The translations under genes were made by a program, and so were the position numbers. Shown here piece by piece: positions 1-18,446 of a stretch of 43,440 nucleotides of DNA. The notes under the pieces are model-generated. The model was given only the letters and a program-made list of their open reading frames with translations. It made no database searches and was not told the DNA's origin. Positions within the stretch are counted from its first letter, which is position 1; every line of letters begins with the position of its first letter. The stretch is from an uncultured bacterium (GTDB taxonomy: Bacteria; Cyanobacteriota; Cyanobacteriia; Cyanobacteriales; Oscillatoriaceae). The DNA is taken from positions 1-43,440 of the forward strand of contig CAYOOD010000065.1 in assembly GCA_964405435.1 (NCBI GenBank), given 5' to 3'.

Positions 1-49
1 GGACGGCATGATATTTTATCAGCTTTATCTGTAGCCGGATTTTAGAGAA

Positions 50-856
50 TTGGTAGTATTTTTACTTTTGCGCGATTTGATTCACGAACGCACGGGAGTC
101 AATTACGAAGATGGCAAGCGGGACATTTTGGCAGACAAACTGCTGCCCCGCGTCAGCGATCGCGGCTTGGACTCGTTTTTGGATTACTACTATCTCCTGA
201 AATACGACGCATCCGCCCCAGAAGAATGGAAACACGTCATGGATGCGATCTCCGTACCGGAAACTTATTTCTGGCGAGAGTTCGACCAAATTCAGGCCCT
301 CGTTAACGTGCTAGTGCCCCAGTATTTCGAGCTTCATTCTTCGGAACCCCTGCGCATTTGGAGCGCCGCTTGTTCCACAGGAGAAGAACCGCTCTCCGTG
401 GCGATGGCTCTGAACGAGCAAGGTTGGTTCTGGAAAGCGCCCATTGAAATTTATGCCAGCGATGCCAGCAAAAGCGCCATCGCCAAGGCGCGCGGAGGGC
501 TTTACCGAGAGCGCTCGTTCCGCACTTTGCCCCCAGCTATCAAGGAAAAATATTTTCGCGAAGAAAACGGAGCTTGGCGGGTGGCACCGGAGATTCACGC
601 CCGCATCAAGTGGACGACAGCAAATTTACTCGAAGAGTCGGAAGTAAAGCCGCTAGCCAAAGCTTCCGTCATATTTTGCCGAAACGTCTTCATTTACTTT
701 TCTGAAAAAACAATCCGCAAAACAGTGCGCTTATTTTGGGATGCCATGCCCGCTCCCGGTTATTTATTCGTGGGCGCGTCTGAATCCCTACTAAAGTTAA
801 CGAATGAATTTGAATTAGGAGAGATAAACGAGGCGTTTGTTTATGTCAAAAAATAA
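50..856 (+). CDS. cheR: Chemotaxis protein methyltransferase CheR. The start is uncertain: the ORF opens with TTG at 50, and an in-frame stop at 32-34 limits any N-terminal extension.
   Basis: Translation aligns along its length to E. coli CheR. It has the N-terminal helical domain ('LLRDLIHERTGV...KRDILADKL'), the SAM-binding motif 'IWSAACSTGEEPLSVAMAL' and a C-terminal 'IFCRNVFIYF' region. Confidence 0.85.
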   Translation: MVVFLLLRDLIHERTGVNYEDGKRDILADKLLPRVSDRGLDSFLDYYYLLKYDASAPEEWKHVMDAISVPETYFWREFDQIQALVNVLVPQYFELHSSEPLRIWSAACSTGEEPLSVAMALNEQGWFWKAPIEIYASDASKSAIAKARGGLYRERSFRTLPPAIKEKYFREENGAWRVAPEIHARIKWTTANLLEESEVKPLAKASVIFCRNVFIYFSEKTIRKTVRLFWDAMPAPGYLFVGASESLLKLTNEFELGEINEAFVYVKK

Positions 857-1215
857 CGGCCAAGCTAGCCGTATATTTGACCGATTGGCAAGGGCACAAA
901 CGATGGGAAGGAACGGGTCGTCGCAACCGACGGCTTTAATTTTTGCCTTCTCTGGTTGGAAGAACGCGGGCGCGGCACGCCCTTACAGCTATTCGGCAAA
1001 AAACCTGCTAAATTTTACAATCTGACAATCTCCGCGCTTTCAATCCCGAAACCGTACCCCTTTTTGAGCGCCAAAAAATGGCGGATAAAATTCGTGCTAA
1101 AATCAGTATAAAATCCGCAAGCAAATAACTTTCATCAGGCAGGAATGAAACGAAGCCCTAACAGCTAAAGGATAAAAATAAATGCTAAGTTCAAGCGCAA
1201 TAGGAGAAATACCTC

Positions 1216-2259
1216 ATGGATAGAGTCTTGAGAGTTTTAGTCGTGGACGATTCCGCTTATGTGCGCAAAGTCGTCAAGCAGATGCTCTCTCGCAGCCCGT
1301 TTATCGAAGTCGTCGGAATCGCGCGCGATGGATTGGAAGCGCTGGAAATGGTCGAGCAACTCCAGCCCGATGTGGTGACGCTAGACCTGATCATGCCCAA
1401 CAAAGACGGGGTGGACTTCGTGCGCGAGCAAATGGCCCGCCGTCCGGTGCCGATTATCGTCGTCAGCATTGCCAGTGAAGGCGGCGAACAGACGCTTGCC
1501 GCTCTCGATGCAGGGGCGGTGGATTTCGTGCAAAAGCCGACAGCGCTGGCGACGGAAAAGATCTTCGAGATCGGTGACGAACTGATCGCGAAAGTGAAAG
1601 CGGCTGCTAACGTGCCGCTGAACCGCTTGCCCTCGGTGCCAGTCAAGCAAAACGCCGCAGCGCCCCCGATCCCCGTACCGCGATCGGGAGGGATCGATCT
1701 CGTAGTCATAGGCATTTCTACTGGCGGGCCGCAAGCCTTGAGTTTCTTAATTCCGCAATTGCCTGCAAACCTTCCCGTGCCGGTGGCGATCGTGTTGCAC
1801 ATGCCGGTGGGTTATACAGAACTCTACGCGCGACGCCTCGATCAGCTATCCGCTCTGAAGGTGATCGAAGCGCGGGAAGGAGATGTGGCGATGCCAGGGG
1901 TGGTGCTGCTCGCGCCGGCTGGTCGGCACTTGACGTTTGTCCGCCAAGCAGACGGGAAGGTGGTCGCGCATCTGGACGCTCGACCTTTCGATACCCTCCA
2001 CCGCCCTGCGGTTGACGTCTTGTTTCAATCGGCGGCAGAGGTGTTTGACGATCGCGTCCTCGGTGTGGTGATGACCGGCATGGGTTCTGACGGCAAGCAA
2101 GGCGCGGCATGGATCAAATCTCGCGGCGGCTCGATTTTCACCGAAGCAGAGGAAACCTGCGTGGTTTACGGTATGCCCCGTTCCGTCGTTGAAGCCGGCT
2201 TGAGTGACAAGAGCGTACCCCTCCACGAAATGGCGCAAGCTATTTTAGAGAAACTGTAA
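1216..2259 (+). CDS. cheB: Chemotaxis response regulator protein-glutamate methylesterase CheB (REC + CheB_methylest)
   Basis: The N-terminal receiver has 'VLVVDDS...DVVTLDLIMPNKDG'. The C-terminal methylesterase carries the catalytic Ser in 'GISTGGPQAL', 'LHMP' and 'VMTGMGSDG'. A GGAG Shine-Dalgarno lies about 10 nt upstream of the ATG at 1216. Confidence 0.9.
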   Translation: MDRVLRVLVVDDSAYVRKVVKQMLSRSPFIEVVGIARDGLEALEMVEQLQPDVVTLDLIMPNKDGVDFVREQMARRPVPIIVVSIASEGGEQTLAALDAGAVDFVQKPTALATEKIFEIGDELIAKVKAAANVPLNRLPSVPVKQNAAAPPIPVPRSGGIDLVVIGISTGGPQALSFLIPQLPANLPVPVAIVLHMPVGYTELYARRLDQLSALKVIEAREGDVAMPGVVLLAPAGRHLTFVRQADGKVVAHLDARPFDTLHRPAVDVLFQSAAEVFDDRVLGVVMTGMGSDGKQGAAWIKSRGGSIFTEAEETCVVYGMPRSVVEAGLSDKSVPLHEMAQAILEKL

Positions 2260-2570
2260 GCGAACTTCTGGATCGAGGCTTTTCTGGAGAAGCAGGAAAG
2301 AGAGGGAGGCGAGAACCAAACTATAGAGAAAAACCTGGCAGGCTACTTCTGCTAGTTGTCTCGAAAACTTGCTCGATCGATTTCCCCTGAGAAAGGAGAA
2401 CTCCCCTAGTTTTTCCTTTTCTTTTTTTCTTGTCTCTTTCAGCGGGTAGTCGCCAATTTTTGTAAAAAAGAAAAAATTTTTTCTTGAATTTATTTCTCCC
2501 GCTCTCCTTCTTCCTCTCTCCCCCGTTGCCCGATCGCTTGCTGTCCCGGAAGCTCCTACTATTGCCTTCA

Positions 2571-2577
2571 AAGGAGG
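2571..2577 (+). promoter_or_regulatory. Shine-Dalgarno AAGGAGG for the CheC-like gene
   Basis: Perfect SD 6 nt upstream of ATG 2584. Confidence 0.6.
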
Positions 2578-2583
2578 TTGATA

Positions 2584-3237
2584 ATGCTACTGACCAACCG
2601 ACAGAAAGACGCTCTGATAAAATTTATGAATATTGCCCTCGATCGCAGCGCTGTTTCTCTTTCAGAACTCGTCGGCGTGCGCGTGCGGCTGGAATTGCCG
2701 GAGGTTTACCTGCACCCAGCCAGCGGGTTGGCAACCCACCTCTCCGGTTTTGCAGACAGCGATATAGCAACCGTAAGTCAGATTTTCAAAGGCTCCATGT
2801 CCGGCAATGCGCTCTGGCTGTTGAACTACAACAGCGCTGTAAAATTAATGAATTTGCTGAGCGATTGTCCCGACTTAGACGGGAAACCTCCAGACGTTTC
2901 GGCTTACGAAATGCTCACAGAAGTCGGAAATATCTTGTTGAATGCGTGTTTGGGAATGTTGGGCAACCTCCTCGACATGAAAGTCTTTTTTTCCATGCCG
3001 CTTTTGAATCTCCAGAAGCTCAACGTGCTGCTCAATTCTCTCGTCGCTGGCAAAAATGAATTGCGCTATTCCCTAACGGTGAAAACCACTTTGCACCTCT
3101 ACGAACATTCCGTGAGTGGTTATATTTCTGTGGTCTTGGGCGTTCCGTCCCTGTATCAGTTGATTAAAGCCATAGAAACTTGGGCAGACCTTTCGGTTCC
3201 GAATCAACCTGCCCAGAGCATTTCTTTCAATTCCTAA
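2584..3237 (+). CDS. CheC/CheX-like chemotaxis phosphatase family protein. Start taken as the ATG at 2584; the ORF track begins with TTG at 2578.
   Basis: AAGGAGG Shine-Dalgarno at 2571-2577 lies 6 nt before the ATG. It has two CheC-like helices: 'DALIKFMNIALDRSAVSLSELVG' and 'EMLTEVGNILLNACLGMLGNLL' (the E-x2-N signature). Family-level call only. Confidence 0.5.
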   Translation: MLLTNRQKDALIKFMNIALDRSAVSLSELVGVRVRLELPEVYLHPASGLATHLSGFADSDIATVSQIFKGSMSGNALWLLNYNSAVKLMNLLSDCPDLDGKPPDVSAYEMLTEVGNILLNACLGMLGNLLDMKVFFSMPLLNLQKLNVLLNSLVAGKNELRYSLTVKTTLHLYEHSVSGYISVVLGVPSLYQLIKAIETWADLSVPNQPAQSISFNS

Positions 3238-3425
3238 ATTTTCCCGATCGCAAAAGCTGTCGAGCGGCGCTTTTCCCGTACAGATAAGCGCGGGGCTGTG
3301 GCGCGCTCTCCAACACCAGCCAAAAAACTCTGCGATCGCCAAAAGCGCTCCGGCGGGGAAAGCACGTCCGATCGGCCCTATCGGCAGGGGAAAATGACTC
3401 GAGCAAGTCCCGGAGCGATCGCACT

Positions 3426-3695
3426 CTACAGATGGGGAGATCGGACGAGGGACTGCCGAGACACCAACTTCTCAAACTGAGCCTGAGTCTGCTGCAAGAG
3501 CTGCGCTCGACTATCCACCGCTTCGGTGAGCGTCGGAACCAAGTTGCGGGCTTGTAAAGTCATGTGGAGCTGAAGATGGGCCACATACTCGCAAATATCT
3601 TCCCGATCCGAATAGCTGGAGTTTTGAGACAGTTGCGCTTTCAAAGTGTTCTCCTTATCTCTGTGCCTTTTTTCAACACCCATAGAAGTTACCAT
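3426..3695 (-). CDS. Small hypothetical ORF, 45-89 aa depending on start. It may not be expressed.
   Basis: The only sizeable ORF in the 1.3-kb gap between the CheC-like gene and the histidine kinase. I recognise no family, and no convincing RBS. Confidence 0.15.
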   Translation of the reverse strand: MVTSMGVEKRHRDKENTLKAQLSQNSSYSDREDICEYVAHLQLHMTLQARNLVPTLTEAVDSRAQLLQQTQAQFEKLVSRQSLVRSPHL

Positions 3696-4565
3696 ATCTC
3701 CCGCCGCTGCTTATCGAACTGTAATAAAGCTTAACGTAACTCGCCAGGAAAGATTAAAAAAAGTAAAGGGAGTGGAGAAGAGAGAAGGGGGGAGTGCGGG
3801 CGGCAAGCGGTGAAAAGCGCCGAGTCTCGAGTCAAGGGGAGGGGGGGGAAAGCAGGAGGCGATCGGGCGCGTCCAAAGCCAGAGGCCAGATTAGCTGCAC
3901 ATACAGGGCGGACAAGTCCGAAGCGTCAAGCACCCTAAAAACGCCAATTTTCTTGCTATATTATACGCAGCAGCAGTATCGAACATGACTGAATCCCTAT
4001 GAGGGACTGAGATAAATTGTACCAACAGGCAGTATTTTTTGAGACGGGTTCACTCTCAAAAATCCGCCCCGCGCTTTTTGGCAGGATAAGAGACGAGAAC
4101 TGTACTAGCAGGAGCGCTGAAATTTTCCAGCCCGATTGTTTTCTCCCGAAGACCGAGCCGGATAGCGCTGCCAGTCAAACAGCCGCCCTCCTCAACCTGC
4201 TTTCAGCGTCGCGCCAGTTCTGCCTTGCCAGCGCAAGTGGGCGTAGCCCTGCGAGATTGGAAAAATTGTCTTAAATCCTTTTAAAGAATTATATAATCAA
4301 AAAGGGGGTTGTCAGGCCCCCGCAATAAATGCGCATTCATAAGTTTTGCGGAACCAGCCCCGAGGCGACAGCCCGATAGTGGATTAAATCGGTATTGGCG
4401 AATCAGTAATTAATTACCATTGCAGCGTCGCTTCCTTACGGCAAAAAGAATGCTTTCGCCGAAAAGTCGATGCAAGAGAGCTAAAGAATCTGTTAAAACT
4501 TTGAACAAGTGCAGGCTGCTTCCCGCACGGATGCCACCACTCATGCTCGTTATTGGACTTAACCC

Positions 4566-7238
4566 ATGTACGTCCCAGACAATCCAGAGCTGTTCGAGCT
4601 GTTTTTGAAACATACCCCTACTGCTGTGGCAATGGTCGATCGCCAGATGTGCTACCTGCTAACTTCTCAGCGGTGGCTGACTGATTGGGGTTTGAGCGGC
4701 TGCGAACTCATCGGTCGTTCTCATTACGAAGTGTTTCCCACCCTGAAAAACACTCGAGAAGAAGACGAAAGGGGAAAAAAGGAATTAATTTATCCAGAAG
4801 CAAAAGCTGAGGCACTCGGCGCGGCAGAGCGCTGGCGGCAAATCCAAGCCTCGTGTTTAGCGGGAGCAGTGGAGAGATGGCAAGAAGAGTGTTCGATCGG
4901 CGATCGAGAAGGGCTGCGAGTCAAGTGGGAGGCGCATCCTTGGAGGGCACAGAGCGGTGAAATCGGAGGGTTGATTCTGTTTGCAGAACAAGCAGGCAAC
5001 AGCGAATCGGACGATCGCGCTTTCCAAAGGAGCGCGGCGGCGGCAAAAGAACGAGCCCGTGCCGACGAAAACTCCCTGCGCCGGCAGAGCGAAGTTTTGG
5101 TGCAATTGTCGAAGAGCCCAACCCTAAAAGGCAGCAATCTCAAAGCTGCCCTCAGAGAAATTGCCTCGTCAGCGGCGGCGACGCTAGAAGTGAGTCGGGT
5201 GAGCGTGTGGCTGTATAGCAACTCCGACAAGCGAATTAAATGTATCGAAGTGTACGATCGCGAAAAAGGAAGTCACGGCAGCGGCGGAGATTTGCTCAGC
5301 GCCGCCGATATTGCGAATTGCTTGCAGGCATTAGAAACCGATCGGGCGATCGCCGCCACCAATGCCCGTCTCGACGCGAGCACGCGATCGTTTGCCGAAT
5401 TGTATCTCAGGGGCGGCGAAACCGCCGCGATGCTCAACGTTCCCATCCGCATCGGCGGGCAACTGGTAGGATTCATCTGTCACGAACAAGCCGGCAGGGA
5501 AAGGCGGTGGCTGTTAGGAGAAATCAATTTTGCCGCCTCTATCGGAGACTTTACCGCCCTCGCCTTGGAAAGCTGCGATCGCGCCAAAGCCAAAACCGCG
5601 CTCTTGCAAGCCAAAGACCAACTGCAAGCCGTTTTAGACGCCGTGCCCGGGTGCGTTTCCTGGTTCAGTTCCGACTTGAAATATCTGGGCGTCAACGGAT
5701 ATTTAGCCCAAACCTTCAACATGAAACCGGCAGAATTTGTCGGTAAAACCATAGGATTTTTGCACGGTTCTCCCGAATTTAACAACCTGGTGCCAGATTT
5801 TTTTGCTTCCCCAGAAAAAGAAGCCAGCCGAGAAATTGAAGTAGTTGTCAAAGAAGGGAAGCGATATTTTCTAGTCGTTTCTCAGAAATACCTAAACGGG
5901 AAGGCGGCGGTATTTGTGGGCTTCGACATCACCGATCGCAAGCAAGCCGAAAAAGCCCTGGCTGAGGCAAACGAAGCGCTGGAAATGAGAGTCGAACAGC
6001 GGACGAGAGACTTGAAAGACGCGATCGCGCAATTGCAAGAAGAAATCGAACACCGGCAGCAAATAGAAGAAGTGCGGAACGTCCTCGAATTCTCCATCAA
6101 CCAAGCAGCAGATGCCGTTTTCTGGCTGACGCCAGAGGCGCGATTTTTCTACGTCAACGATGCCGCCTGCCTTTCGCTAAACTACAGCCGAGAAGAACTC
6201 CTCTCGCTGACCTTGCACGATATCAACCCGGACATCCCCGCCGAAGTCTGGCCGGATTACTGGGACGAAATCAGAGAATTTGGCTCCGTCAGACTGGAAT
6301 CGAACCACTGCAGCAAAGAAGGGCAGATATTTCCGGTAGAAATTACTATCAATTATTTTCACGTCAACGGCAATGAATACAATTGCATTTTTGCCAGAGA
6401 TATCAGCGATCGCAAGCAAGTCGAATCAGAATTGTACCAAGCCAAACTCGCCGCCGAAGCCGCCAACCGAGCCAGAAGCTCTTTTCTGGCGAATATGAGC
6501 CACGAACTGCGCACCCCCTTAACCGCCATCATCGGCTACAGCGAACTGCTGCAAGAAGACCTGCAAGATCTGGGCATGAGCGATACAGATTTCATCCCCG
6601 ACTTGCAAGCCATCCACACGGCGGGCCAAAAGCTGCTGGCCCTGCTCAGCAACATCCTCGATTTCTCGAAAATCGAATCGGGGCAAATGGGGCTCGACCT
6701 CACCTCGTTCAGCGTCGCTCACCTGCTAGAAGAAGTCGAGAACATCATGCGCCCGCAGGTGGAGCAAGACGACAATACCCTAACCGTCACCTGTAACGAG
6801 GACGTGGGCAGCATGTACGCCGACTGGCACAAGGTGCAGCAGATTCTGTTTAATTTGCTCAGCAATGCCACCAAATTTACCGAAAACGGCACGATCTCCC
6901 TGGATGTCTATCGCCAAGACACCCCTGATTTCCGAGCCCTCCGATCGGGGGCCAGTCTCGCTCGCAGGGAGGCAAAAAACGCAGGCAGCGTCGATTCGTG
7001 GATTGCATTTCGAGTCAGCGACACCGGCATCGGCATCAGCCCAGAGCAGATCAAAACAATTTTCCAGGCATTTACCCAAGCAGACGAATCCACCACGCGC
7101 CGTTACGGCGGCACGGGCATGGGATTGGCTCTGAGTCGCAGCTTGTGCCAGATGATGGGCGGCGAGATCCTCGTCGAGAGCGAGCTCTCAGAGGGCTCGA
7201 CTTTTACGGTTTACCTGCCTGCGTGCGTTAACCAATAA
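4566..7238 (+). CDS. Multi-sensor histidine kinase with PAS, GAF, two PAS/PAC, HisKA and HATPase_c domains. It has no receiver.
   Basis: N-terminal PAS ('[24 protein letters not shown]'). GAF ('[11 protein letters not shown]...[17 protein letters not shown]'). H-box '[21 protein letters not shown]'. N box '[12 protein letters not shown]' and G boxes 'DTGIGIS' and '[13 protein letters not shown]'. Confidence 0.9.
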
Positions 7239-7614
7239 GCAGCAGGGAGGGGGGAGCTTTCAAAAGCGGGTGAGAGTGGGAGAAAAGAAAAATTTCCCCC
7301 CTTTTTTTCTCCCCCCGTCTCTCGCTGCTCGGGCGCGATCGCCTTCACAAAATATGTCGCGGCAAGTTAGAGTTTCATCTATGACAAATGCGGGCTTTTC
7401 TGTTGGCGGCGCTTTCCGGACTGGCTTTTCGCGCTCCTTCCGCTTGGAATCGGGCACTCCGGCGCTGCCTCCCGCGCGAAAAGTCCGCGAAAAAACACTC
7501 GCCGACGGTGCTGGCAGGCTGCACGCATCCCCGATAGAGCGCGATCGCGCGATCGCCTCCGACACCTTCCATTAAAAACTCCCTGCTCCCACAATCCCTC
7601 GAGTGGTTGTTGTT

Positions 7615-8874
7615 ATGGCCAACATTTTAGTGGTTGACGACGATTTGACCGTTCAATTAGTGCTGCAAGATTTGCTGGAGAGCGAAGGACACGAGGTAAC
7701 GGTCGCTCCAGACGGCTCAGAAGCCCTAGAATTGGCCCTGCGCCTGCATCCCGACGTGATGATTTGCGACTGGATGATGCCGGTCATCGACGGGATAGAA
7801 CTGTGCCGGCGCGTCAAAGCCTCTCCAGAACTGGCTGCTACTTTTTTCATCTTGCTCACCGCCCGCGAGCAGCTCTCCGATCGCGTCAAAGGGCTCGACG
7901 CCGGCGCTGACGAGTTCCTCTCCAAACCGATAGAAACTGAGGAATTGCTGGCGCGGGTGCGGGCGGGCTTGCGATCGCGTTCTCTCACCCTGCAGTTGAG
8001 CAAAACCTTGCAAGAATTGCAGCAAACGCAGGCGCAACTGGTGCAGAGCGAAAAAATGTCCTCCCTCGGGCAGCTCGTTGCCGGGATTGCCCACGAAATT
8101 AACAACCCCGTCACCTTCATCTACGGCAATCTCGCCCATGTAGAAAGCTATTCCGCAGAACTCATCGAGCTGCTGCAGCTTTACGAGGAACTCGTCCCCA
8201 ACCCGCCGGCAGCGATTCGCGACAAACTCGCCGCCCTTGACAAAGATTTTTTGATTCAAGACTTGCAAAAAGTCATCGATTCCATGCAAACCGGGGCCGA
8301 TCGCATCCGCCAAATTGTTTTATCCCTGCAAGATTTTTCCAGAAGCGATCGCGCTGGGTGGCAGATGGTGGACATTCACCAATGTCTCGACAATACTTTA
8401 GGGCTTTTGCAGCACCGCTTGCACTTTCCCGCCAGCGAAGCGGCTTCAAAGGCGCTAGAGAGTTCTGGCATTGAGGCGATCAAAAAATACGGCAACCTGC
8501 CCGAGGTAGAATGCTATGCGGGGGAATTGAATCAAGCATTTTTAAACATTCTTAACAATGCTATTGACGTTCTCAGCCAAAAAGACAAGCCGCGATCGCC
8601 TCGCATTACCATCACAACCGAAATAGCAGATGCCACTTCAGTCAGAATTCGGATTGCCGACAATGGAGCAGGCATGAGCGAATCCGTCAAATCTCGCATT
8701 TTTGACCCCTTCTTTACCACAAAACCCGTGGGCTCTGGCACGGGCTTGGGGCTGGCAATCTGCTACCAAATTATCGTCGCCCAGCATGGCGGAACCCTGC
8801 AATGCTTTTCCGAACCCGGACAAGGGTCAGAATTTTGCATTCAGCTTCCCACGCGCCCGAACCGGCATCCCTAG
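7615..8874 (+). CDS. Response-regulator receiver fused to a histidine kinase (REC-HisKA-HATPase_c). Start taken as ATG 7615; the ORF track starts at GTG 7603.
   Basis: Receiver 'ILVVDDDLTV...DVMICDWMMPVIDG...LSKP'. Coiled coil, then H-box 'LVAGIAHEINNPVTFIYGNL'. N box 'LNILNNAIDV', G boxes 'DNGAGMS' and 'GSGTGLGLAICYQII'. Confidence 0.85.
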   Translation: MANILVVDDDLTVQLVLQDLLESEGHEVTVAPDGSEALELALRLHPDVMICDWMMPVIDGIELCRRVKASPELAATFFILLTAREQLSDRVKGLDAGADEFLSKPIETEELLARVRAGLRSRSLTLQLSKTLQELQQTQAQLVQSEKMSSLGQLVAGIAHEINNPVTFIYGNLAHVESYSAELIELLQLYEELVPNPPAAIRDKLAALDKDFLIQDLQKVIDSMQTGADRIRQIVLSLQDFSRSDRAGWQMVDIHQCLDNTLGLLQHRLHFPASEAASKALESSGIEAIKKYGNLPEVECYAGELNQAFLNILNNAIDVLSQKDKPRSPRITITTEIADATSVRIRIADNGAGMSESVKSRIFDPFFTTKPVGSGTGLGLAICYQIIVAQHGGTLQCFSEPGQGSEFCIQLPTRPNRHP

Positions 8875-9359
8875 TGTTTGGTTAAGATTGTTGTGGAGGC
8901 TGGGTGGGAGGGTTGCCGGGAAAAGGGGGAGAGGGGGGGAGGGGGAGAGGGAAAAATGAAGTGGCTTGGCTTAATTAGCTGACAGAACAGTAGGCGCAGC
9001 AGGAAGCCGTCCAAAAGGAGAATGAAAAAGCTTTTATACAGCTATCAATCCTAATTTTTTTGCTCACTTTGGCTTTTTTTCGTTCGCGTCGGATGCTTGG
9101 CCAACTGCCTGACTGCTTATTTTCATACCTGCAAAACCGCTGGAGTTCTCGTGGGCCAAAATTCGGGGAGTTGACGATGACGTAACTGTTCTATTCAATT
9201 GTAGTGTGAGCGTCCAGCGCGCCCTCCTGAAAAAACGTCTTTTTACATGCCCAGGGATGCTCGCCTTGGATGATGCCGAAACTGGATGGATGAGAACTTT
9301 GCTGGCGGATCAAAGCCTCGCCAGAACTTGCGACAACTTTTTGTATGCAGGGGGTCATA

Positions 9360-12300
9360 ATGGAATCTGAAAATCCCTCGCTGCTCTCCCAGTATAAAGA
9401 CTGTATTGAGCGCCACTGTATCGCCGTGGCTGCCGATACCGCGCTACTGGACGCTATAAAACTGATGGGGCAAACCAACGATCGCGACTTCGGCGTGCAG
9501 GCGCAGCCGGAAGTGAAACCAGAGACAGCCATGCGAACGAGCTGTGTTTTGGTGGTGGAAGGCGATCGCCTGGTGGGCTTGATGACAGAACAGGACATCG
9601 TGAGGATCGCCGCGCGAGAGGGCAGCTTGCGGGAGGTGACGGTTGCTGAGGTGATGGAGCGGCAGTTGATAACCTGCACGGAAGAAGAAGCGCGAGAACC
9701 CCTGCGAGTCATCCAACTATTGCGCCAGCACGGCATCCGCCACTTGCCCGTCACGAACGAGCGAGGTCAACCGCTAGGCATAGTGACGCCAGAGAGCATT
9801 CGCGCCACCTTGCAATCAGCAGACGTACTCAAGAGCCGAACCGTCCGAGAAGTCATGGCAGAAAGGGCGATCCACGCCCCAGCCAGCGCGACGCTGCTAG
9901 AGGTGGCCAAACTCATGGCCGAGCATCGGGCGAGCTGCGCGGTTATCGGTGCGGAGATCGCCCCGGCAAAAATTCGCCCTCTGGGAATCGTGACGGAGCG
10001 GGATCTCGTGCAAGCCCAAGCCCTAGAAGTGAATTTGAGAGAAGCGATCGCCGAACGGGTGATGAGCGCTCCCCTATTTCTAACCAGTCCCGACGATTCC
10101 CTGTGGGAGGCTCACCAACAAATGCAGCGGCTGAATATCCGGCGCTTAGTCGTTGTTGACCGCGAAGGCTATTTGGCGGGACTGGTGACACATGCGAGTA
10201 TTTTGCAAGCGATCGATTTAAACGAACTGCACGGAGTGATTGTCGCCTTGAAACAGCAGGTGCAGCAACTAAAAACCGAGAACGTCGATTTGCTAAAGCG
10301 CCTGAATAGCCAGCTCGCGCGAGAAGTGAGCGATCGCGCCGCGAGGCTGCAAGAATCCGCGCAGAAAAATCAACTCTTAGCCGATATGGCACTGCGGATT
10401 CGCGCCTCTTCGAGTTTAGACGCGATTCTCAATACCACCGTCGCCGAAGTTCGCCAACTGCTGCAAGCCGATCGCGTCATCATTTACCGCTTCGATCCCG
10501 ATTGTAGCGGCAAAGTGATTGTAGAATCTGTTGAACGAGTGGAATGGTCTATTATCAACAGTGTTGTCAAAGATGAGTGCTTCGAGGCCGGATGGTTCGC
10601 TCCGTATAAAAACCGCCGTTCCAAAGCGATCGCCGATATCGAAAATGCCGGATTGAGCCCCTGCCACGTTGATTTTTTAAAGCTGTTTGACGTGAAAGCT
10701 AATCTCATCGTCCCCATCGGGTTTGACGAGACGTTGTGGGGACTTCCGATCGCGCATCAGTGTGCGCGATCGCGGCAGTGGCAGCCGGAAGAAATAGAAT
10801 TTCTGGAAAACTTATCCGTCCAGGTAGAAATCGCGATTCAGCAAGCGACACTGATCGAGCAAATTCAAACCGCCAATGCACAACTCGCCAGCGAAGTCGC
10901 CCAGAGAACCGAGCAATTGCAGCGGGAACTCGAACGCACGCAGCGAGCCGAAAAAGCAAGCCGGGAACGGGAAGCAGTGCTGCGGAGCTTCTACGACTCT
11001 GCACCGATGATGATGGGCGTTGTGGAACTGTTAGACGATGACATCCTGCATTTATCGGACAACGCGACAACGGCGCAATTTTTCGGAACGACTCCGAAAG
11101 CAATGCAGGAACGATGCGCCAGCGAAATGGGGGCGGAACGAGAATATATTCTCTGGTGGATTAGCTATTATCGGGAGAGCCAGAGATTAGGTCAGCCCGT
11201 TCGCTTTGAATACCAGCACGAGCGAAAGGGAACGGTCAAGTATCTGTCGGCAACCGTTTCCTACATCGGGCAAGGGGAGAGCGATCGCCCCCGTTTTTCC
11301 TATATTGTCGAGGATATAAGCGATCGCAAGCTCGCAGAAATAGCCCTGCAAAAAAGCGAGGAAAAATACCGGCAAATTGTCGAAACCACCTCAGAAGGCA
11401 TCTGGGTGCTGGATGTGGAAAACAAAACCAGCTTTGTGAATGCCAAGATGGCAGAAATGCTCGGCTACACCGTTGAGGAAATGCAGGGAATGCCTTTGTT
11501 TGCCTTTATGGAAGCCGAAGAACAAAGGCTGGCGCAAGCTTATTTAGAACGCCGCTATCGGGGGATTAGCGAACATCACGATTTCAAATTCCGCCGCAAA
11601 GACGGCTCCGATCTGTGGGCGATGCTATCGACGACAGCGATTCTCGATGCGGCAGGCAACTATGCTGGTGGTTTCGCAATGCTTGCGGATATCAGCGATC
11701 GCGTGCGGGCAGAAGCCGCCCTGCGAGAAAGCGAAGAACGCTGGCAACTGGCGCTGCGCGGCACTCAGGACGGGATCTGGGACTGGAATGTCAAAGCCCA
11801 GCAAGTTTTCTTTTCCGAGCGCTGGAAGGCAATGCGCGGGTTTGAACCCCACGAAATCGGCAACTCTCTACAGGAGTGGTACAGTCGCATTCATCCTGAA
11901 GATGTGCAAAAAGTCAGACAAGCGCTCGACGATCACTTTGCCCGCAAAACGCCTTTGTTCACCGCTGAATACCGCGTGCAGCGCAAAGATGGCAGCTATA
12001 TGTGGATTCTCGACCGGGGACAGGCGCTTTGGGACGAAACCGGCAATGTCGTGCGGATGGCGGGATCGGAAAGCGACATCAGCGATCGCAAACAGGCTGA
12101 AGAATCCCTGCGCCAGAGCGAAGCCTCCCTGCGCGCCTTTTTCCGCGCCATTCCCGACGCCATCTTTCAAGTCTGCAGGGATAGAACCTGTGGCGACGCG
12201 GGCGATTTGCTCTTGCACGAGCTAGCTTCATGCGGCTCTGTGAAAATCCTCAAATCCAACCAAGAGACGAACGCAGGGCGAATTCCAGAAATCCTGCCCC

Positions 12301-15300
12301 TGGCTCTGGCACAGTTGCCGGTGCAGTACCTCGATCGGGCGATCGAAACTGGCGAGCTGCAAGTTTGCGAATACGAAATCGCTCTCGACGGCGAAACGCG
12401 CTGCCAAGAAGCCCGCATTGTTGCCAGCGAATGCGATCGCGCTTTTGTAGTCTTGCGCGACATTACCGAGCGGAAAAAAACTGAAGAAAGATTGCGAAAA
12501 TTTGAAGGCATTGTCTCGAACATTCCCGATGCCATTTTTTTGATCGACCGCGACTATACCTATCAAGTTGCCAACCAGACTTATTTAGACTGGCACGAAA
12601 CCTCCGCCGCTGAGATTGTCGGACGTTCGGTTGCCGACATGATAGGGCAGGAAGTCTTCGAGACCGTTGCCAAACCTCACCTCGATCGCTGTCTGGCGGG
12701 AGAAATTGTCCGCTACGAGCAGTGGTTTGAGTATCGCCACTCCCTGCCTCGATTTCTGAGCGTCACTTATGCGCCTTACGCCGAGCCAGACGGCACCATA
12801 TCGGGCATCGCCGTCAGCCTGCACGACTTGACAGAACTCAAACAAGCCGAAGAGGCGTTATGGCAGAGCGAACAAAGATTTCAGATTGCGATCGAACACA
12901 TGCCAGATGTCTGCGTGATTTACGATCGCGACCGGCGATTGCAGTATGTCAATCAGCAGGGATTGGAGCGGACGGGATGGCCCTTAGAACAGTTCATCGG
13001 CCAGCGAGATGAAGATTTATTTCCTCCCGAAGTGACTTCTAGCTATCTGCCGATTTTGCTGCAGACTGTTGCGACGAAAACCTATCAAGTAGGAGAGTGT
13101 ACGATTCGGCTTCCCGATGCAGAGCCCTACACCATCATTGCCAAGTACGTCCCCCTGCTCGACGAAGCGGGCGAGATTCAACAAATCCTGGGCATCACCT
13201 TTGATATCACCGATCGCCAGCGCTCCGAAGAAGCCTTGAAAGCGAGTGAAGCTCGCTTCCAAGCCTTCATGCAAAATATTCCCGCTGCCACTTGGATTGC
13301 CGATGATGCAGGCATATTAGTCTATGCAAATGCCTCATTTATGAAAGGGGTGCTGTTGTCTCGTCAGGATGCGATCGGCAGAAATCTGTTTGAAATTTTT
13401 TCGCCGGAAATGGCTCAGCAATATGTAGAGAATAACCGCCTTGTTGCTCAAGCGCAAACGGTGCTAGAAACCATTGAAACGGCAACCCGATCCGATGGTT
13501 CGCTGGGCGAATACCTGGTTTACAAATTTCCGATTCCCTCCACGTCTGAAAACTTCCTCATCGGGGGTGCGGCGATCGACATCACCGAGCGCAGGGCGCT
13601 AGAGCGAGAGCTAGCCGCGAAACAACAATTGCTGGATGCCTTTATCACGAGCGCTCCAGTGGGCATGACGGTACTCGATCGCCAGTGCCGCTACGTTCTC
13701 GTCAATGAAGCTTTAGCAGAAATTAATGGGCTATCAGTAGCCGAACATATCGGGAAAACCCCCTGGGAAATCGTACCCGATCTGGCACCGAAACAAGCGG
13801 GCATCTTTGAACATGTCCTGACAACGGGCGAACCTGTCCTCTATGTAGAGATTGCTGGAGAGACGCAGAAACTGCCAGGGGTATTGCGGACGTGGTTAGT
13901 TTCTTATTTCCCGATTCAGTCGCCGGAAACCCAACCCATCGGGCTCGGCATTGTTGTTGTCGAAATCACCGAGCGCAAGCAAGCAGAAGCCGCGCTGCGC
14001 GAGAGCGAGGAAAAGTTTCGCCAGTTGGCCGAAAACATTCACCAAGCCTTTTTTATGACTGATAAGAAGGGAAAAGTTCTTTATATTTCTCCAGCCTACG
14101 AGCGAATATGGGAGAGAAGTTGCGAAAGCCTGTATAAAAATCCTTTATCTTGGATGGAGTGCATCTATGCAGATGATTATAAACGAATCCAATGGGTTTT
14201 CAGCAGGCAATTGCGATCCAGTATATCCGTCGATGAAACTTATCGAATTGTCCGATCGGATGGACAGATTCGCTGGATTGTGTCTCGCTCGGCTCCTATT
14301 TTCGATGAAAGGGGAGAGGTTTACCGCTTTGCCGGCATTGCCGAAGATATCACAGAGCAAAAATGGGCGGAAGATGCCCTCCAGCGGCAATTGCAGAAAG
14401 CGTTGCTCCTGCAAAAAATCACGGATGAAATCCGCCAAAACCTCAACACGCAGCACATTTTTGAAACGGCTGCTATTCAAATCGGAGAGGCATTTGGGGT
14501 GAATCGCTGTCTGATTCACGCCTACATTGCCCAACCAGAACCGAGGCTGCCTTTGGTGGCGGAATACTTGCTGGGAGGCTATCCGTCGTTGAAGGACACA
14601 GAAATTCCCGTTGCAGACAATATTCACGCCCAAACCGTGTTAAGAGAAGAACGGGCGATCGCGACGCCGGATGTCTACAGCGAACCGCTATTTGAGCCAG
14701 TATTTCACCTGTGCCGTTACCTGCAAATCCAGTCAATGCTGACGGTGCGGACTTCTTATCAGGGCGAACCGAATGGTTTAATCGGGCTGCACCAGTGCGA
14801 TCGCGCCCGCGCCTGGATGCCCGATGAAATTGAATTGCTCGAAGCCGTCGCCGCTCAGATGGGAATTGCCCTGGCGCAAGCGGCTCTCTTAGAACGAGAA
14901 ACCCACAGGAGCGAAGAACTGGCGCTGAAAAACATCGCCCTAGAGCAAGCGTCGCGAGAAGCCGAAACCGCCAACCGCGCCAAGAGCGAATTTCTCGCCA
15001 ATATGAGCCACGAATTGCGCACGCCATTAAACGCTATCCTGGGATTTGCCCAAGTGATGGGCGGCGATTCGTCTCTCAAAAAGGAACACCAACAACAATT
15101 AGCGATTATCAATCGCGCCGGCGAGCACCTGCTGGAATTAATCGACGACATTTTAGAAATGTCCAAAATCGAAGCCGGTAGAGTCACTTTAAATGACACG
15201 AACTTTGACCTGCTGCACCTGCTCGATACCCTCAAAGAAATGCTGTACTTAAAAGCGCGGGCAAAAGGATTAAATCTCGCCTTCGAGCTAGCTGCTTCTC

Positions 15301-16409
15301 TTCCCTCCTTCGTGCGAACGGATGAAGGGAAACTGCGCCAAGTTTTGCTCAACATCTTGGGCAATGCCATTAAATTTACGAAATCGGGCACCGTCACCCT
15401 GCGCGCGAAAGCGAACGCGATCGAAGCAGGCAGCGGGCACCGCGAAACAGCCAGCCAAGCCCGTTTATTATTTGAAATCTCCGATACCGGCCCCGGCATT
15501 GCCCCAGCGGAAATGAACAAGTTATTTGAATCCTTCGGACAAACCGAAACAGGCCGAAAATCGGGACAAGGAACGGGGTTGGGATTGCCCATCAGCCGCA
15601 AATTCGTGCAACTGATGGGAGGAAATATCAGCGTCAAAAGCACAGTCGGACAGGGCAGCATTTTTAGCTTTAACGTTCCCGTCACGCTCATCGACGCGAC
15701 GGATGTTCTGCTGCCGACGCGGCAGCGCAAGATCGTGTGTTTAGCCCCCAATCAGCCGAGCTATCGGATTCTGGTCGTTGACGACATCTCCGACAGCCGC
15801 TTGCTGCTTTCGCAAATTCTCGCCGCCATTGGCTTCGAGGTGCGGGAAGCGGAGAATGGGCAGCAAGCCGTTGATTTGTTGCACAGTTGGCAGCCGCACT
15901 TGATTTTAATGGACATGCGGATGCCGGTGATGGACGGCTACGAGGCAACCAAACAGATTAAATCCGGCTCGAACGGAGAGGCTACAACGATTCTTGCCCT
16001 GACGGCTAACGCCTTTGAAGAAGACCGCATAACTGTTCTGGCTGCCGGGTGCGATGATTTCATTCGCAAGCCTTTTCAAAAAGAGGAGCTTTTAGAAAAA
16101 ATCGGAAAGCATCTCGGGCTCGCCTACATCTATGAAGAGGAGAGCAGCTTCAGCCAAAGCGATCGGCCAAAAACTGAAGGGATTTCTTCTCCGGCTGCGG
16201 CGATCGCGCACTTGGCTCAAATGCCGCCGGAATGGGTAGCAGAACTCTTCAAACTGGCGTCTCAATGCAGCGACGACTTGATTTTAGAATTAGTCGAAGA
16301 ACTTCCCCCCGATCGCGCTCCGCTAGCAGAAGTGGTTGCAGATCTTGCCCATAACTTCCAGTTTGAAAAAATTCTGGAATTGCTCGAACCGATGGAGAGA
16401 GCCAACTGA
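9360..16409 (+). CDS. Giant hybrid sensor histidine kinase: four CBS domains, GAF, at least seven PAS/PAC modules, a second GAF, HisKA, HATPase_c, REC and an unassigned C-terminal domain of about 90 aa. Its length is 2354 aa if started at ATG 9345.
   Basis: Start chosen at ATG 9360, which has a GGGGG Shine-Dalgarno 8 nt upstream. CBS pairs: 'LVVEGDRLVGLMTEQDIVR', 'PLGIVTPESIRA', 'PLGIVTERDLVQA', 'GLVTHASILQAI'. Repeated PAC endings read '...DITERK/DISDRK'. H-box '[21 protein letters not shown]'. 'NILGNAIKFT...DTGPGIAP...GTGLGLPISRKFV'. Receiver 'ILVVDDISDSR...LILMDMRMPVMDG...IRKPF'. Confidence 0.9.
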   Translation: MESENPSLLSQYKDCIERHCIAVAADTALLDAIKLMGQTNDRDFGVQAQPEVKPETAMRTSCVLVVEGDRLVGLMTEQDIVRIAAREGSLREVTVAEVMERQLITCTEEEAREPLRVIQLLRQHGIRHLPVTNERGQPLGIVTPESIRATLQSADVLKSRTVREVMAERAIHAPASATLLEVAKLMAEHRASCAVIGAEIAPAKIRPLGIVTERDLVQAQALEVNLREAIAERVMSAPLFLTSPDDSLWEAHQQMQRLNIRRLVVVDREGYLAGLVTHASILQAIDLNELHGVIVALKQQVQQLKTENVDLLKRLNSQLAREVSDRAARLQESAQKNQLLADMALRIRASSSLDAILNTTVAEVRQLLQADRVIIYRFDPDCSGKVIVESVERVEWSIINSVVKDECFEAGWFAPYKNRRSKAIADIENAGLSPCHVDFLKLFDVKANLIVPIGFDETLWGLPIAHQCARSRQWQPEEIEFLENLSVQVEIAIQQATLIEQIQTANAQLASEVAQRTEQLQRELERTQRAEKASREREAVLRSFYDSAPMMMGVVELLDDDILHLSDNATTAQFFGTTPKAMQERCASEMGAEREYILWWISYYRESQRLGQPVRFEYQHERKGTVKYLSATVSYIGQGESDRPRFSYIVEDISDRKLAEIALQKSEEKYRQIVETTSEGIWVLDVENKTSFVNAKMAEMLGYTVEEMQGMPLFAFMEAEEQRLAQAYLERRYRGISEHHDFKFRRKDGSDLWAMLSTTAILDAAGNYAGGFAMLADISDRVRAEAALRESEERWQLALRGTQDGIWDWNVKAQQVFFSERWKAMRGFEPHEIGNSLQEWYSRIHPEDVQKVRQALDDHFARKTPLFTAEYRVQRKDGSYMWILDRGQALWDETGNVVRMAGSESDISDRKQAEESLRQSEASLRAFFRAIPDAIFQVCRDRTCGDAGDLLLHELASCGSVKILKSNQETNAGRIPEILPLALAQLPVQYLDRAIETGELQVCEYEIALDGETRCQEARIVASECDRAFVVLRDITERKKTEERLRKFEGIVSNIPDAIFLIDRDYTYQVANQTYLDWHETSAAEIVGRSVADMIGQEVFETVAKPHLDRCLAGEIVRYEQWFEYRHSLPRFLSVTYAPYAEPDGTISGIAVSLHDLTELKQAEEALWQSEQRFQIAIEHMPDVCVIYDRDRRLQYVNQQGLERTGWPLEQFIGQRDEDLFPPEVTSSYLPILLQTVATKTYQVGECTIRLPDAEPYTIIAKYVPLLDEAGEIQQILGITFDITDRQRSEEALKASEARFQAFMQNIPAATWIADDAGILVYANASFMKGVLLSRQDAIGRNLFEIFSPEMAQQYVENNRLVAQAQTVLETIETATRSDGSLGEYLVYKFPIPSTSENFLIGGAAIDITERRALERELAAKQQLLDAFITSAPVGMTVLDRQCRYVLVNEALAEINGLSVAEHIGKTPWEIVPDLAPKQAGIFEHVLTTGEPVLYVEIAGETQKLPGVLRTWLVSYFPIQSPETQPIGLGIVVVEITERKQAEAALRESEEKFRQLAENIHQAFFMTDKKGKVLYISPAYERIWERSCESLYKNPLSWMECIYADDYKRIQWVFSRQLRSSISVDETYRIVRSDGQIRWIVSRSAPIFDERGEVYRFAGIAEDITEQKWAEDALQRQLQKALLLQKITDEIRQNLNTQHIFETAAIQIGEAFGVNRCLIHAYIAQPEPRLPLVAEYLLGGYPSLKDTEIPVADNIHAQTVLREERAIATPDVYSEPLFEPVFHLCRYLQIQSMLTVRTSYQGEPNGLIGLHQCDRARAWMPDEIELLEAVAAQMGIALAQAALLERETHRSEELALKNIALEQASREAETANRAKSEFLANMSHELRTPLNAILGFAQVMGGDSSLKKEHQQQLAIINRAGEHLLELIDDILEMSKIEAGRVTLNDTNFDLLHLLDTLKEMLYLKARAKGLNLAFELAASLPSFVRTDEGKLRQVLLNILGNAIKFTKSGTVTLRAKANAIEAGSGHRETASQARLLFEISDTGPGIAPAEMNKLFESFGQTETGRKSGQGTGLGLPISRKFVQLMGGNISVKSTVGQGSIFSFNVPVTLIDATDVLLPTRQRKIVCLAPNQPSYRILVVDDISDSRLLLSQILAAIGFEVREAENGQQAVDLLHSWQPHLILMDMRMPVMDGYEATKQIKSGSNGEATTILALTANAFEEDRITVLAAGCDDFIRKPFQKEELLEKIGKHLGLAYIYEEESSFSQSDRPKTEGISSPAAAIAHLAQMPPEWVAELFKLASQCSDDLILELVEELPPDRAPLAEVVADLAHNFQFEKILELLEPMERAN

Positions 16410-16582
16410 TCGGCTGCGGCGAGGGGGAGAGCGGGAGAGCTTTCTGCCCCGTCAAATCACAAGCCTAATCGCTTATCGCGGGGGAGCATCCCATTTTTGG
16501 AGTGCGTTCGCGAAGCGGGTGCGTAAGCGTTGCGGCTCTTTTATGAGCTAGCACCAACGTCTCGTTCGCTCTTGAATAGATA

Positions 16583-16599
16583 GGGAGCGAGACGCTCCC
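16583..16599. other. Perfect short hairpin GGGAGCG-aga-CGCTCCC in the long intergenic region downstream of the giant kinase
   Basis: 7-bp GC-rich stem with a 3-nt loop, read directly. No adjacent U tract, so its assignment as a terminator is uncertain. Confidence 0.3.
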
Positions 16600-17110
16600 A
16601 CTTCTGAAAAAAGGTGTTTTGACAAAAACGGGATGCTCCCCTTATCACGTCCGGTGGGATGGGCTGTACGATCTAGAGGAGGGCACGCCGACGGCGGGGA
16701 AACTCCGAAACCGTCCGCCTTGCTGAGGAACTTGGCAGCGTCGCGATCGAGACTCCCTATTTTTTTTACTCCCTTTTCGGTCTAAAATTGCCGTTGGCTG
16801 CTATTTCTCTTTTTGCCGCCTCCCCCCCTTCCCCTTCTTGATCGGTTTCTTGCGGCGGGGAGGGAGCCAGTGGAGGCAACCTCTCACTTTTGTAGGGGAA
16901 AACGCATATAGCCCTTCTGCACAGGGCTGCGCTAACGAGAGAAGAAGCTCTCGGTTTTCACCGAAAATCGATGATGCGAATGCTCTTTCGCGACGCCCGG
17001 TATCTACATGTACGCTTGACGATTCCGTCAGAGGAAGAGAGGACGATCTCTCTGAAAAGTTGCTTTTTACAGCCGATCGATGGAAAAATTATACCTGCCA
17101 GTCATAAAAA

Positions 17111-18180
17111 ATGAGTAAACCTTCAGCGAAGTCCTATAAAGGTGACATTCTACTGGTTGACGATACCCCTGACAATCTGCGGGTTTTAGCTTCTCTCCTA
17201 GAGAATCAGGGGTATCGCATTCGCAAAACCTTGAATGGGACGATGGCTTTAACTGCCTGTGAAAACTTGTTGCCCGACCTGATTTTACTGGATATTTTAA
17301 TGCCGGATATGGACGGATATGAGGTGTGCAAGCGGCTGAAAGATTCCGAAAGAACGCGGGACGTGCCCGTGATTTTTATTAGCGCTCTCGATAAGACCCT
17401 TGATAAGGTAAAGGCGTTTAAAGTTGGGGGTGCAGATTACATCAGCAAGCCGTTTCAAACTGAAGAAGTCATCGCTCGCGTCACGCACCAACTGACGATC
17501 CAGCAGCAGCACCGCCAACTGATCGAACAAAACGCACAACTGCAAAAGTTGAATGAAACCATCACGCGCTACAATGCCGAAATCGCCAAATCCAATGCCG
17601 AATTAGAACAATTTGCCTACATGGCATCCCACGATTTGCAATCGCCGCTCCAGCTTACGATCGGTTATGCAGATATACTGCTCTGGAAATACGAAACGAA
17701 TCTCAATGAGGAGATGAAACGCTATATTGGCGAGATTGTGAAGGCGGGTACGCGGATGCAGCTGCTCATTAAGGATTTGCTGGCTTATTCTAGGCTGGGA
17801 GCGCGCCCTCCCCAGTTGCAAGCGGCTGACTGCCAACTCGCTTTAGCAGAGGCGCTGGCTAATTTGAGCGAGGAAATCTCTGCCAGCGGGGCGGTTATCA
17901 CCCATTCGGATTTGCCAACCGTCACGGGCGATCGCACGCAATTGATGCAGCTTTTTCAAAATCTCATTGGCAATGCCATTAAATTTCGCCGCCCGGACAT
18001 TTCCCCCTCATTTTTGAGGTTTTCCAGCGCCTGCACCCGCATACGGCATACCCGGGCACTGGGCTCGGTATGTCTATCTGCAAAAAAATTGTCGAACGCC
18101 ACGGCGGGCAGATTTGGGTTGAATCTGAAGTCGGAGCGGGAACGACGTTTTATTTTACACTTCCTCGCATGGAAGAATAA
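17111..18180 (+). pseudogene. REC-HisKA-HATPase_c histidine kinase with an internal deletion and frameshift in the ATP-binding domain. It is a probable pseudogene, or else an assembly error.
   Basis: The receiver ('ILLVDDTPDN...LILLDILMPDMDGYEV...ISKPF') and the phytochrome-type H-box 'MASHDLQSPLQ' are intact. The N box '[13 protein letters not shown]' is followed about 4 codons later, in the -1 frame, by '[56 protein letters not shown]', which ends at the TAA at 18178-18180. About 35-40 codons are missing, including the DxGxG box. The ORF-track frame reads through to 18364 as nonsense. Confidence 0.6.
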
Positions 18181-18446
18181 ATCGGCTGGGAAGTGTTTTA
18201 AAATCGATGCAAGCTTTCTCTATCGGTTGAATGGCTGGCCGCATCGCTGGCACCGGATTCGTCGGGAGGCGATCGCGCGGTCTGGGAAAAAATACCTTCT
18301 AAAAATGCCTGTGATTTATATCACCATTTTTCGGTGTTTGACGTCAGCCAAACGACCGATCTAAATCATTCGCGCCTTCCCCAAAATAGATAGGATAAAA
18401 GAAACCAGCCAACCAGAAAAGAGGCTCGGTAGGGAGAGTAAATTTA

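Follow-up and report, generated by a model that had tools for sequence, protein, structure and literature searches.

A row of four two-component genes in an uncultured Oscillatoriaceae bacterium and its counterpart in close relatives

Composition of the kinase array

The DNA analysed here is an entire NCBI contig of 43,440 bases from an uncultured bacterium of the Oscillatoriaceae, called the window below. Towards its start lie four two-component genes in a row on the same strand: a histidine kinase (HK1), a receiver-histidine kinase protein (REC-HK; gene 2), a giant hybrid kinase (HK3) and a second REC-HK gene (gene 4) (Table 1). A preliminary description had taken this row for two duplicated relay modules, in each of which the REC-HK receives phosphate from the sensor kinase before it. 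The four codirectional open reading frames (ORFs) and their sensor and kinase domains are as it claimed, according to the ORF list and Pfam, and Pfam also confirmed the flanks, CheR and CheB upstream and a major vault protein (MVP) homologue downstream. Such a row is not remarkable in itself for a genome so rich in two-component genes. With moderate confidence, we lean towards reading the array as a lineage-specific composite and not as two duplicated relay modules; HK1, gene 2 and gene 4 would be the unit shared with relatives, and HK3 would be self-contained.

Table 1. Features of the window discussed in the text; lengths in amino acids (aa).
Feature	Position	Strand	Content
HK1	4566-7238	+	890 aa; PAS-GAF-PAS-HisKA-HATPase_c, without receiver (Pfam)
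Gene 2	7615-8874 (alternative GTG start 7603)	+	419/423 aa; intact REC-HisKA-HATPase_c; putative Rec-controlled histidine kinase (REC-DHp-CA)
HK3	9345-16409	+	2354 aa; CBS-GAF-about nine PAS-GAF-HisKA-HATPase_c-REC and ~100-aa tail (Pfam)
Gene 4	17111-18180 (frame-shifted ORF to 18364)	+	REC-HK pseudogene or remnant without ATP lid; frame shift at 17997/17998
Receiver remnant	9160-9342	+	Decayed gene-2-like receiver piece abutting the HK3 start codon
CheR methyltransferase	50-856	+	Pfam CheR_N and CheR, E = 8e-48; contig begins here
CheB (receiver and methylesterase)	1216-2259	+	Pfam Response_reg and CheB_methylest; colinear with L084/L086
Probable divergent CheC/CheX-family protein, 219 aa	2578-3237	+	Assigned by family profile; putative phosphatase of phosphorylated receivers
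Small conserved ORF, ~67-89 aa	3426-3695	-	Divergent from HK1; no Pfam/NCBIfam family
MVP homologue	18447-21077	+	Pfam Vault repeats (four Vault repeat families) and MVP_shoulder; outside the signalling cluster

HK1, gene 2 and HK3 retain the phosphoacceptor His, the N, G1, F and G2 boxes and, in the receivers, the Asp, Thr and Lys residues. No transmembrane segment is evident in the array proteins, whose maximum Kyte-Doolittle means over 19-residue windows are 1.37-1.65. The catalytic motifs of HK1 are complete, GTGMGL included, and its kinase core is of the hybrid type, with TorS, LuxQ and BarA as best NCBIfam matches; it aligns with HK3 over the 268-aa catalytic cores alone, at 37% identity. 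In gene 2, both the receiver (ILVVDD, VMICDWMMPVIDG with D52, FILLTA and FLSKP; Pfam Response_reg, E = 5e-29) and the kinase part (AHEINNP with H160, NILNNAID, DNGAGM and GTGLGL; Pfam HATPase_c, E = 1e-24) are complete. The HisKA match covers just the first 25 profile positions, because the DHp domain (for dimerization and histidine phosphotransfer) has a long insert. Pfam detects nothing in gene 2 beyond receiver, DHp and catalytic and ATP-binding (CA) domains, and no other sensor domain; by these sequence features the protein would be classed as a Rec-controlled histidine kinase, of which LvrB is the prototype. An exact look-up of the 423-aa product of the GTG start found no record in the databases, because they place the start at 7615. 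Two Logan assemblies, SRR12969846 and SRR8581213, both end at about window position 8043, where the gene 2 DHp domain starts.

The N-terminal part of HK3 is made of CBS domains, two GAF domains and about nine PAS units, and is followed by HisKA (residues 1879-1945), HATPase_c (1993-2114) and REC (2142-2253) matches in Pfam. The catalytic H, N, G1, F, G2 and D motifs are all present, so the protein has the domains of a hybrid kinase. As the feeder of a phosphorelay, HK3 would also need a histidine phosphotransfer (Hpt) domain and a terminal output regulator, and neither was found within the window: Hpt (PF01627) has no match in HK3, in its tail or in any window ORF, and there is no output response regulator, CheB being the sole other receiver protein. 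Some HK3 homologues elsewhere do carry Hpt. More generally, no window protein attains any NCBIfam equivalog cut-off, and Rfam matched zero families over the entire window. The tail behind the HK3 receiver (residues ~2255-2354, positions 16105-16409) is a stretch of ~100 acidic, helical residues (…MPPEWVAELFKLASQCSDDLILELVEELPPDRAPLAEVVADLAHNFQFEKILELL…); it matches no Pfam family, with MgtE_N below threshold only (E = 0.039), and has no Hpt-like HxxKG motif.

Gene order and sequence in close relatives

The three close relatives compared (L084-L086) are two "Oscillatoriaceae bacterium SKW80" metagenome-assembled genomes and one Logan contig. They are the only close ones, about 80% identical to the window in nucleotides (nt); L084 and L086 are sisters at 88%, against about 78-82% to the window. 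In all three the locus runs from a protein with a methyl-accepting chemotaxis protein (MCP) domain through a PAS-HEAT-repeat protein, CheR, CheB, a 215-217-aa protein and a small ORF on the opposite strand to the kinases. The kinase part consists of HK1, gene 2, an intact gene 4 and a 188-189-aa protein, and ends at Rieske and MutS genes on the opposite strand. The two REC-HK genes are thus direct neighbours there, and HK3 and MVP are absent. The spacers of HK1, gene 2 and gene 4 measure 29-57 nt in each of the three relatives, which are genomes of two sub-lineages, so the HK1-gene 2 adjacency holds at this distance in all of them. Judging by this gene order and packing, HK1, gene 2 and gene 4 probably form a compact operon in the relatives, which directly follows the end of a che-like operon and the small divergent ORF. 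In the window the genes share the strand, and the gaps are 364-701 nt against these 29-57 nt; the "short gaps" of the preliminary description are therefore wrong for the window, where the successive junctions span 364-376, 470 and 701 nt.

A colinearity map made with blastn shows the window to follow the relatives throughout except in five window-only segments: 3772-4465, 7238-7613, 8855-17106, 18182-21763 and 26407-30454. HK3 is contained in the third of these (8.25 kb), which the relatives lack. The alternation of sensor kinase, REC-HK, hybrid kinase and REC-HK that had been described is real in the window, and it is confined to this genome and not conserved.

Immediately before HK3, positions 9267-9342 are 76% identical in nucleotides to positions 7771-7846 of gene 2. 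The translation, WMMPKLDG*ELCWRIKASPELATTF, shares the reading frame of HK3 and is interrupted by a stop, with VDDDVTV earlier in another frame. We read this receiver remnant as marking a rearrangement junction. Its divergence of ~24% from gene 2 is below the synonymous divergence from the relatives (dS ~1), which hints that the rearrangement took place after the split, a crude comparison as it covers 76 nt. The long spacers at 3772-4465, 7238-7613, 8874-9160 and 16409-17111 are each 0.3-0.7 kb longer than in the relatives, and the surplus DNA contains neither an ORF nor an Rfam family and is not repeated in the rest of the window. When six spacers were compared by tblastx and blastn with all loci and the window, the receiver remnant was the sole match, and no transposase or repeated element was found. 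Several spacers have long polypurine/polypyrimidine runs (7245-7320, 8915-8955 and 16815-16840), and the third gap holds a 19-nt inverted repeat (16481-16499 / 16623-16641). HK3 is spanned by the NCBI contig only, no Logan contig across it having been recovered; the next Logan contig begins at ~16613, near this inverted repeat.

The claim that the fourth gene encodes a REC-HK stood for its receiver and HisKA domains, the only ones detected by Pfam, and failed for HATPase_c, which has no match; the CA domain is broken. Three-frame translation places the N box in the starting frame and the F/G2 part (IFEVFQRLH...) in another frame with its stop at 18180, and the frame breaks at 17997/17998. The length of 417 aa given before is that of the frame-shifted ORF ending at 18364, while the original frame terminates at 18180. 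Alignment with the intact orthologues of the close relatives (388/389 aa; in L084 a 388-aa REC-HisKA-HATPase_c protein) shows that 97 nt are gone, removing ~36 residues that include the G1 box DNGIGI. Without a complete in-frame CA domain, gene 4 as sequenced would not count as a Rec-controlled histidine kinase. An assembly error is unlikely, since a Logan contig built separately, which occurs in 3 samples, matches the window at 100% over the deletion and gives the same 417-aa product. Logan assemblies match the window at 100% wherever they overlap it.

Purifying selection acts on HK1, gene 2 and what is intact of gene 4, with ratios of nonsynonymous to synonymous divergence (dN/dS) of 0.06-0.13 (about 0.1 for HK1). 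HK1 orthologues are 80-86% identical in the close relatives and 51-54% in Laspinema, and those of gene 2 are 82-84% identical in the close relatives and 55-65% across the Oscillatoriales. For HK3, the best non-self homologue among 5.8 billion proteins is 35-38% identical and scores 1832 bits against 5259 for HK3 itself, which is why we regard HK3 as having no sequenced orthologue. Downstream of its nearest homologues there is either a REC-GAF-GGDEF gene or no signalling gene, and none of them has a gene-4-like neighbour. A scan of a genome collection with HK3 gave, among the matches listed, paralogue-level loci only (29-59% identity in the best segment), unfit for synteny.

Under the composite reading, this genome is set apart from the relatives by three features. 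An 8.25-kb segment with HK3 and a 5' half-receiver lies between the REC-HK genes, the intergenic spacers would have grown from about 30-60 nt to 0.36-0.70 kb, and the 97-nt frame-shifting deletion has taken the ATP-binding lid from gene 4.

These data bear directly on the duplication model, in which HK1 feeds gene 2 and HK3 feeds gene 4, the pairs arose by duplication, and the array is the ancestral state, from which HK3 was lost in the SKW80-like relatives. Gene 2 and gene 4 are 27% identical, have different DHp types (AGIAHEINNP with the long insert against ASHDLQSPL) and belong to different kinase subfamilies, HKB and HKC, in a typing with purpose-built hidden Markov models (HMMs). With the large kinases sharing just their cores, the components of the proposed modules are therefore not paralogues, which argues against duplication. 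The second pair fares no better, as HK3 is absent from the loci of all three relatives and has no orthologue anywhere, its nearest homologues are not followed by a gene-4-like REC-HK, gene 4 is inactivated here and the gap between the two is 701 nt. The low divergence of the receiver remnant, for what 76 nt can tell, also points to rearrangement after the split. In favour of paired modules, a REC-HK directly after a large kinase is common in cyanobacteria (see below), Microcoleus BROC3 (L031) has the same HK/REC-HK/HK/REC-HK alternation, and gene-4-like REC-HKs, 50% identical, overlap the stop of a giant hybrid kinase in L006 and L023. Gain and loss of HK3 are also equally parsimonious, and the composition of HK3 is native. 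On balance we consider the paired modules quite improbable.

The frequency of such pairs was estimated with HMMs for the receiver and three kinase-core types, built from the window and its homologues, over 80 cyanobacterial loci from the HK3 scan, taken among the matches listed and not phylogenetically independent. A REC-HK comes next, on the same strand and within 700 nt, after 26 of the 109 large kinase genes, and another receiver protein after 34 of the 109. The share of REC-HK genes in genomes of this kind is guessed to be well under 1% of all genes, a background estimate and not a measured value. The survey frequency is far above this guessed background, and the pair type is a recurrent design, of which the present instance is unconserved. 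That about a quarter of large kinases precede a REC-HK suggests that kinase-to-kinase cascades are routine, and under-studied, in cyanobacteria. The notion that gene-4-like REC-HKs always adjoin hybrid kinases was rejected as evidence, as the loci were chosen for containing a hybrid kinase.

Signal flow and comparable systems

Under the composite reading, the PAS and GAF domains of HK1 would sense a cue in the cytoplasm, and the kinase would autophosphorylate. Having no receiver of its own, HK1 would pass the phosphate to the N-terminal receiver of gene 2; phosphorylation of gene 2 by HK1 would be the most likely transfer at this locus. The gene 2 kinase would then be switched by phosphorylation of its receiver, as in LvrB, and the phosphate would go on to a response regulator whose gene is not in the vicinity. 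In the relatives, gene 4 may be a second tier or a branch, and here it would be dead or a REC-DHp remnant. HK3 would act as a self-contained hybrid kinase needing an Hpt protein encoded elsewhere, and its position may have arisen by accident in a lineage-specific rearrangement or be the vestige of a gene order that other genomes have lost. The earlier proposal that a REC-HK is fed by the adjoining sensor keeps its value as a known mechanism with experimental proof in other systems and is most plausible for HK1 and gene 2, while the pairing of HK3 with gene 4 is unsupported.

The closest parallel is LvrA/LvrB of pathogenic Leptospira. The genes lvrA and lvrB lie side by side in one operon, and LvrA phosphorylates LvrB at D56; phosphorylation of the LvrB receiver frees the catalytic domains for autophosphorylation, and LvrB is the prototype of Rec-controlled kinases (PMC5863495, PMC13269768). 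As there, a large PAS kinase gene precedes, on the same strand, a gene for a soluble REC-DHp-CA protein without other sensor domain. The best solved structure for gene 2 is LvrB (8vc9, E = 1e-27), and in NCBIfam the intact gene 4 orthologue matches the REC-HK module of LvrA best. The scores are far under the cut-offs (131 bits against 500 for gene 2 with hybrid_RR_LvrB and 206 against 1200 for the gene 4 orthologue), so the window proteins are not LvrA/LvrB orthologues. LvrA is also a hybrid, whereas HK1 has no receiver, and there are two consecutive REC-HKs in the relatives of the window. Transfer was shown biochemically for the Leptospira pair, and the present array is known from sequence.

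Two further systems show a REC-HK under the control of another kinase. In the BphP1/ExsG/ExsF system, known from Rhizobium NT-26 and Agrobacterium, BphP1 of Rhizobium phosphorylates D62 of ExsG and inhibits the ExsG kinase, which feeds ExsF (PMC3899027). There, a sensor kinase acts on the N-terminal receiver of a REC-HK of the same cluster, itself a kinase for a further regulator. The differences are that ExsG is of the HWE type, hexameric and inhibited by phosphorylation of its receiver, whereas genes 2 and 4 are of the HisKA type, and that the window has no single-domain regulators equivalent to AgR or ExsF. In Rhodospirillum centenum, CheA3 phosphorylates an inhibitory receiver of CheS3, encoded in a che cluster with CheR and CheB (PMC4436063). 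The cascade from CheA3 to CheS3 to CheY3 resembles the present locus in that a che-like CheR/CheB cluster adjoins a kinase with an N-terminal receiver. It differs in that CheS3 is a REC-REC-PAS-HWE protein, in that no CheA, CheW or CheY is visible here and in that an ORF on the opposite strand stands between the che genes and the kinase genes. We would expect the window proteins to resemble all these systems in their working without belonging to the named families.

Several findings weigh against the composite reading. In Laspinema and two further genomes no signalling gene adjoins the HK1 orthologues (51-54%), the gene 2 orthologue of Kamptonema is solitary, and that of Laspinema sp. D1 follows an unrelated 1703-aa hybrid kinase bearing Hpt. 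Because the orthologues are unlinked in Laspinema and Kamptonema, the adjacency of HK1 and gene 2 is limited to one shallow clade and could be incidental. As L084 and L086 are closer to each other than to the window, a gain of HK3 here and a single loss in their ancestor are equally parsimonious. The composition and codon usage of HK3 and MVP are native-like and lend no support to a recent foreign origin. Scans for consensus promoters and terminators returned counts equal to the shuffled expectation and are uninformative on operon structure. An equally possible phosphate donor for gene 2 would be a CheA of the adjacent che-like operon, in the manner of CheA3 and CheS3. The preliminary description had itself named dispersal of the orthologues in related genomes as the finding that would refute its relays, and it is what we found in Laspinema and Kamptonema.

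The same dispersal is an argument for mere coincidence, that is, for four independent signalling genes with partners elsewhere and a gene order without pathway information. Loci in which transmitters and receivers alternate, including RedCDEF of Myxococcus xanthus, have been catalogued and proposed to act as phosphorelays, with a second transmitter in place of Hpt, and Williams and Whitworth (2010) explicitly point to coincidental juxtaposition as the other explanation of these loci (PMC3018481). This class of loci lies behind the model of the preliminary description, and in the case of the window the alternation is unconserved. The spacers are also long enough for separate promoters, and no output response regulator or Hpt is found in the window. 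The packing of HK1, gene 2 and gene 4 at 29-57 nt in three genomes of two sub-lineages speaks against coincidence, as does the fact that HK1 has no receiver partner other than its neighbours, and the enrichment of REC-HKs beside large kinases argues that such pairs are usually functional. We hold coincidence to be rather unlikely, and the composite with an HK1-gene 2 transfer at its centre remains the reading we prefer.

In terms of annotation, the fourth gene should be corrected to a pseudogene, and the HK3 and MVP genes assigned to genome-specific segments. Beyond annotation the significance of the locus may be small, as it would be one more sensor kinase beside a Rec-controlled kinase, a class very common in filamentous cyanobacteria that has LvrB as its structural paradigm. 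It does illustrate that in kinase-rich cyanobacterial genomes gene order is not pathway wiring without comparative support.

Flanking genes and other segments

Upstream of CheR, the relatives encode two proteins, one bearing an MCP signalling domain (E = 1.6e-36), the other 928 aa long with PAS and HEAT/PBS-lyase repeats (L084, positions 1-3983), and for this reason we interpret CheR and CheB of the window as the last part of a chemotaxis-like operon that the contig end truncates. The dN/dS of CheB is 0.03-0.04. The 219-aa protein that follows has no Pfam match itself and scores 46.7 bits against NCBIfam CheC, under the cut-off of 250. It has 2301 representative homologues; of 46 aligned ones, 32 match Pfam CheC and 6 carry an N-terminal receiver, and the family profile matches CheC of T. 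maritima (1xkr) at E = 1.9e-28. A single-sequence AlphaFold model of this protein had a mean pLDDT of 34.5 and was discarded, the family being assigned by profile.

These neighbours raise the question of whether the REC-HKs are the output of a Che3-like system, in which a CheA encoded before the contig start phosphorylates their receivers, the CheC-like protein resets them and HK1 is a second input. Here and in the relatives the genes just upstream encode CheR, CheB and a probable CheC-family protein, an MCP-signalling-domain gene lies further upstream in L084, and the che cluster of Rhodospirillum centenum encodes a REC-HK phosphorylated by CheA3 (PMC4436063). Neither CheA nor CheW is visible in the window or the fetched flanks, the divergent small ORF separates the che genes from HK1, and che genes are missing around the HK1 and gene 2 orthologues of other genomes. 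A Rosetta-stone test found CheB or CheR domains in none of the 120 best HK1 homologues, and hence no fusion linking the che genes to HK1. We regard a Che3-like output as very unlikely. Equally doubtful, and a long shot at best, is the broader proposal that the MCP, HEAT-repeat, CheR, CheB and CheC-like genes and the HK1-REC-HK-REC-HK genes form, in this Oscillatoriaceae clade, one chemotaxis-like pathway of the "alternative cellular function" kind, with a Rec-controlled kinase cascade as output, methylation for adaptation and the CheC-like protein resetting the kinase receivers. If true, it would be a cyanobacterial counterpart of R. centenum Che3/CheS3, or of the methylation of the kinase RsbK by RsbM (PMC4574943), and this genome would have been caught dismantling the pathway, with its spacers expanded, one kinase deleted and a foreign kinase wedged in.

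The small ORF on the opposite strand, before HK1, lies in the best-conserved block of the comparison (3426-3772, 84% nt identity to L084/L086). Its counterparts are at 6824-7045 in L084, 9379-9582 in L089 and 9378-9581 in L090, with the shared core EYVAHLQLHMTLQARNLVPTLT. It is 71-73% identical in amino acids to 67-aa ORFs upstream of the Laspinema HK1 orthologues, HK1 itself being ~54% identical there, and no other HK1 neighbour is conserved between genera. It matches no family in Pfam or NCBIfam. Its product could be a partner or regulator of HK1.

Two of the window-only segments lie downstream of the array. The first (18182-21763, 3.6 kb) carries MVP and a 163-aa ORF (21138-21629, minus strand) and is absent from the three closest relatives, in which the 189-aa protein comes directly after gene 4 with no MVP segment between. 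The other (26407-30454) holds a remnant of a Type ISP restriction-modification gene (ORF 27177-30437, minus strand) encoding a 1086-aa protein with N6_Mtase and Type_ISP_C matches and none of the nuclease or helicase families. A 1590-aa Type ISP version with Mrr_cat_2, DEAD and helicase domains is present in L086, at a different position.

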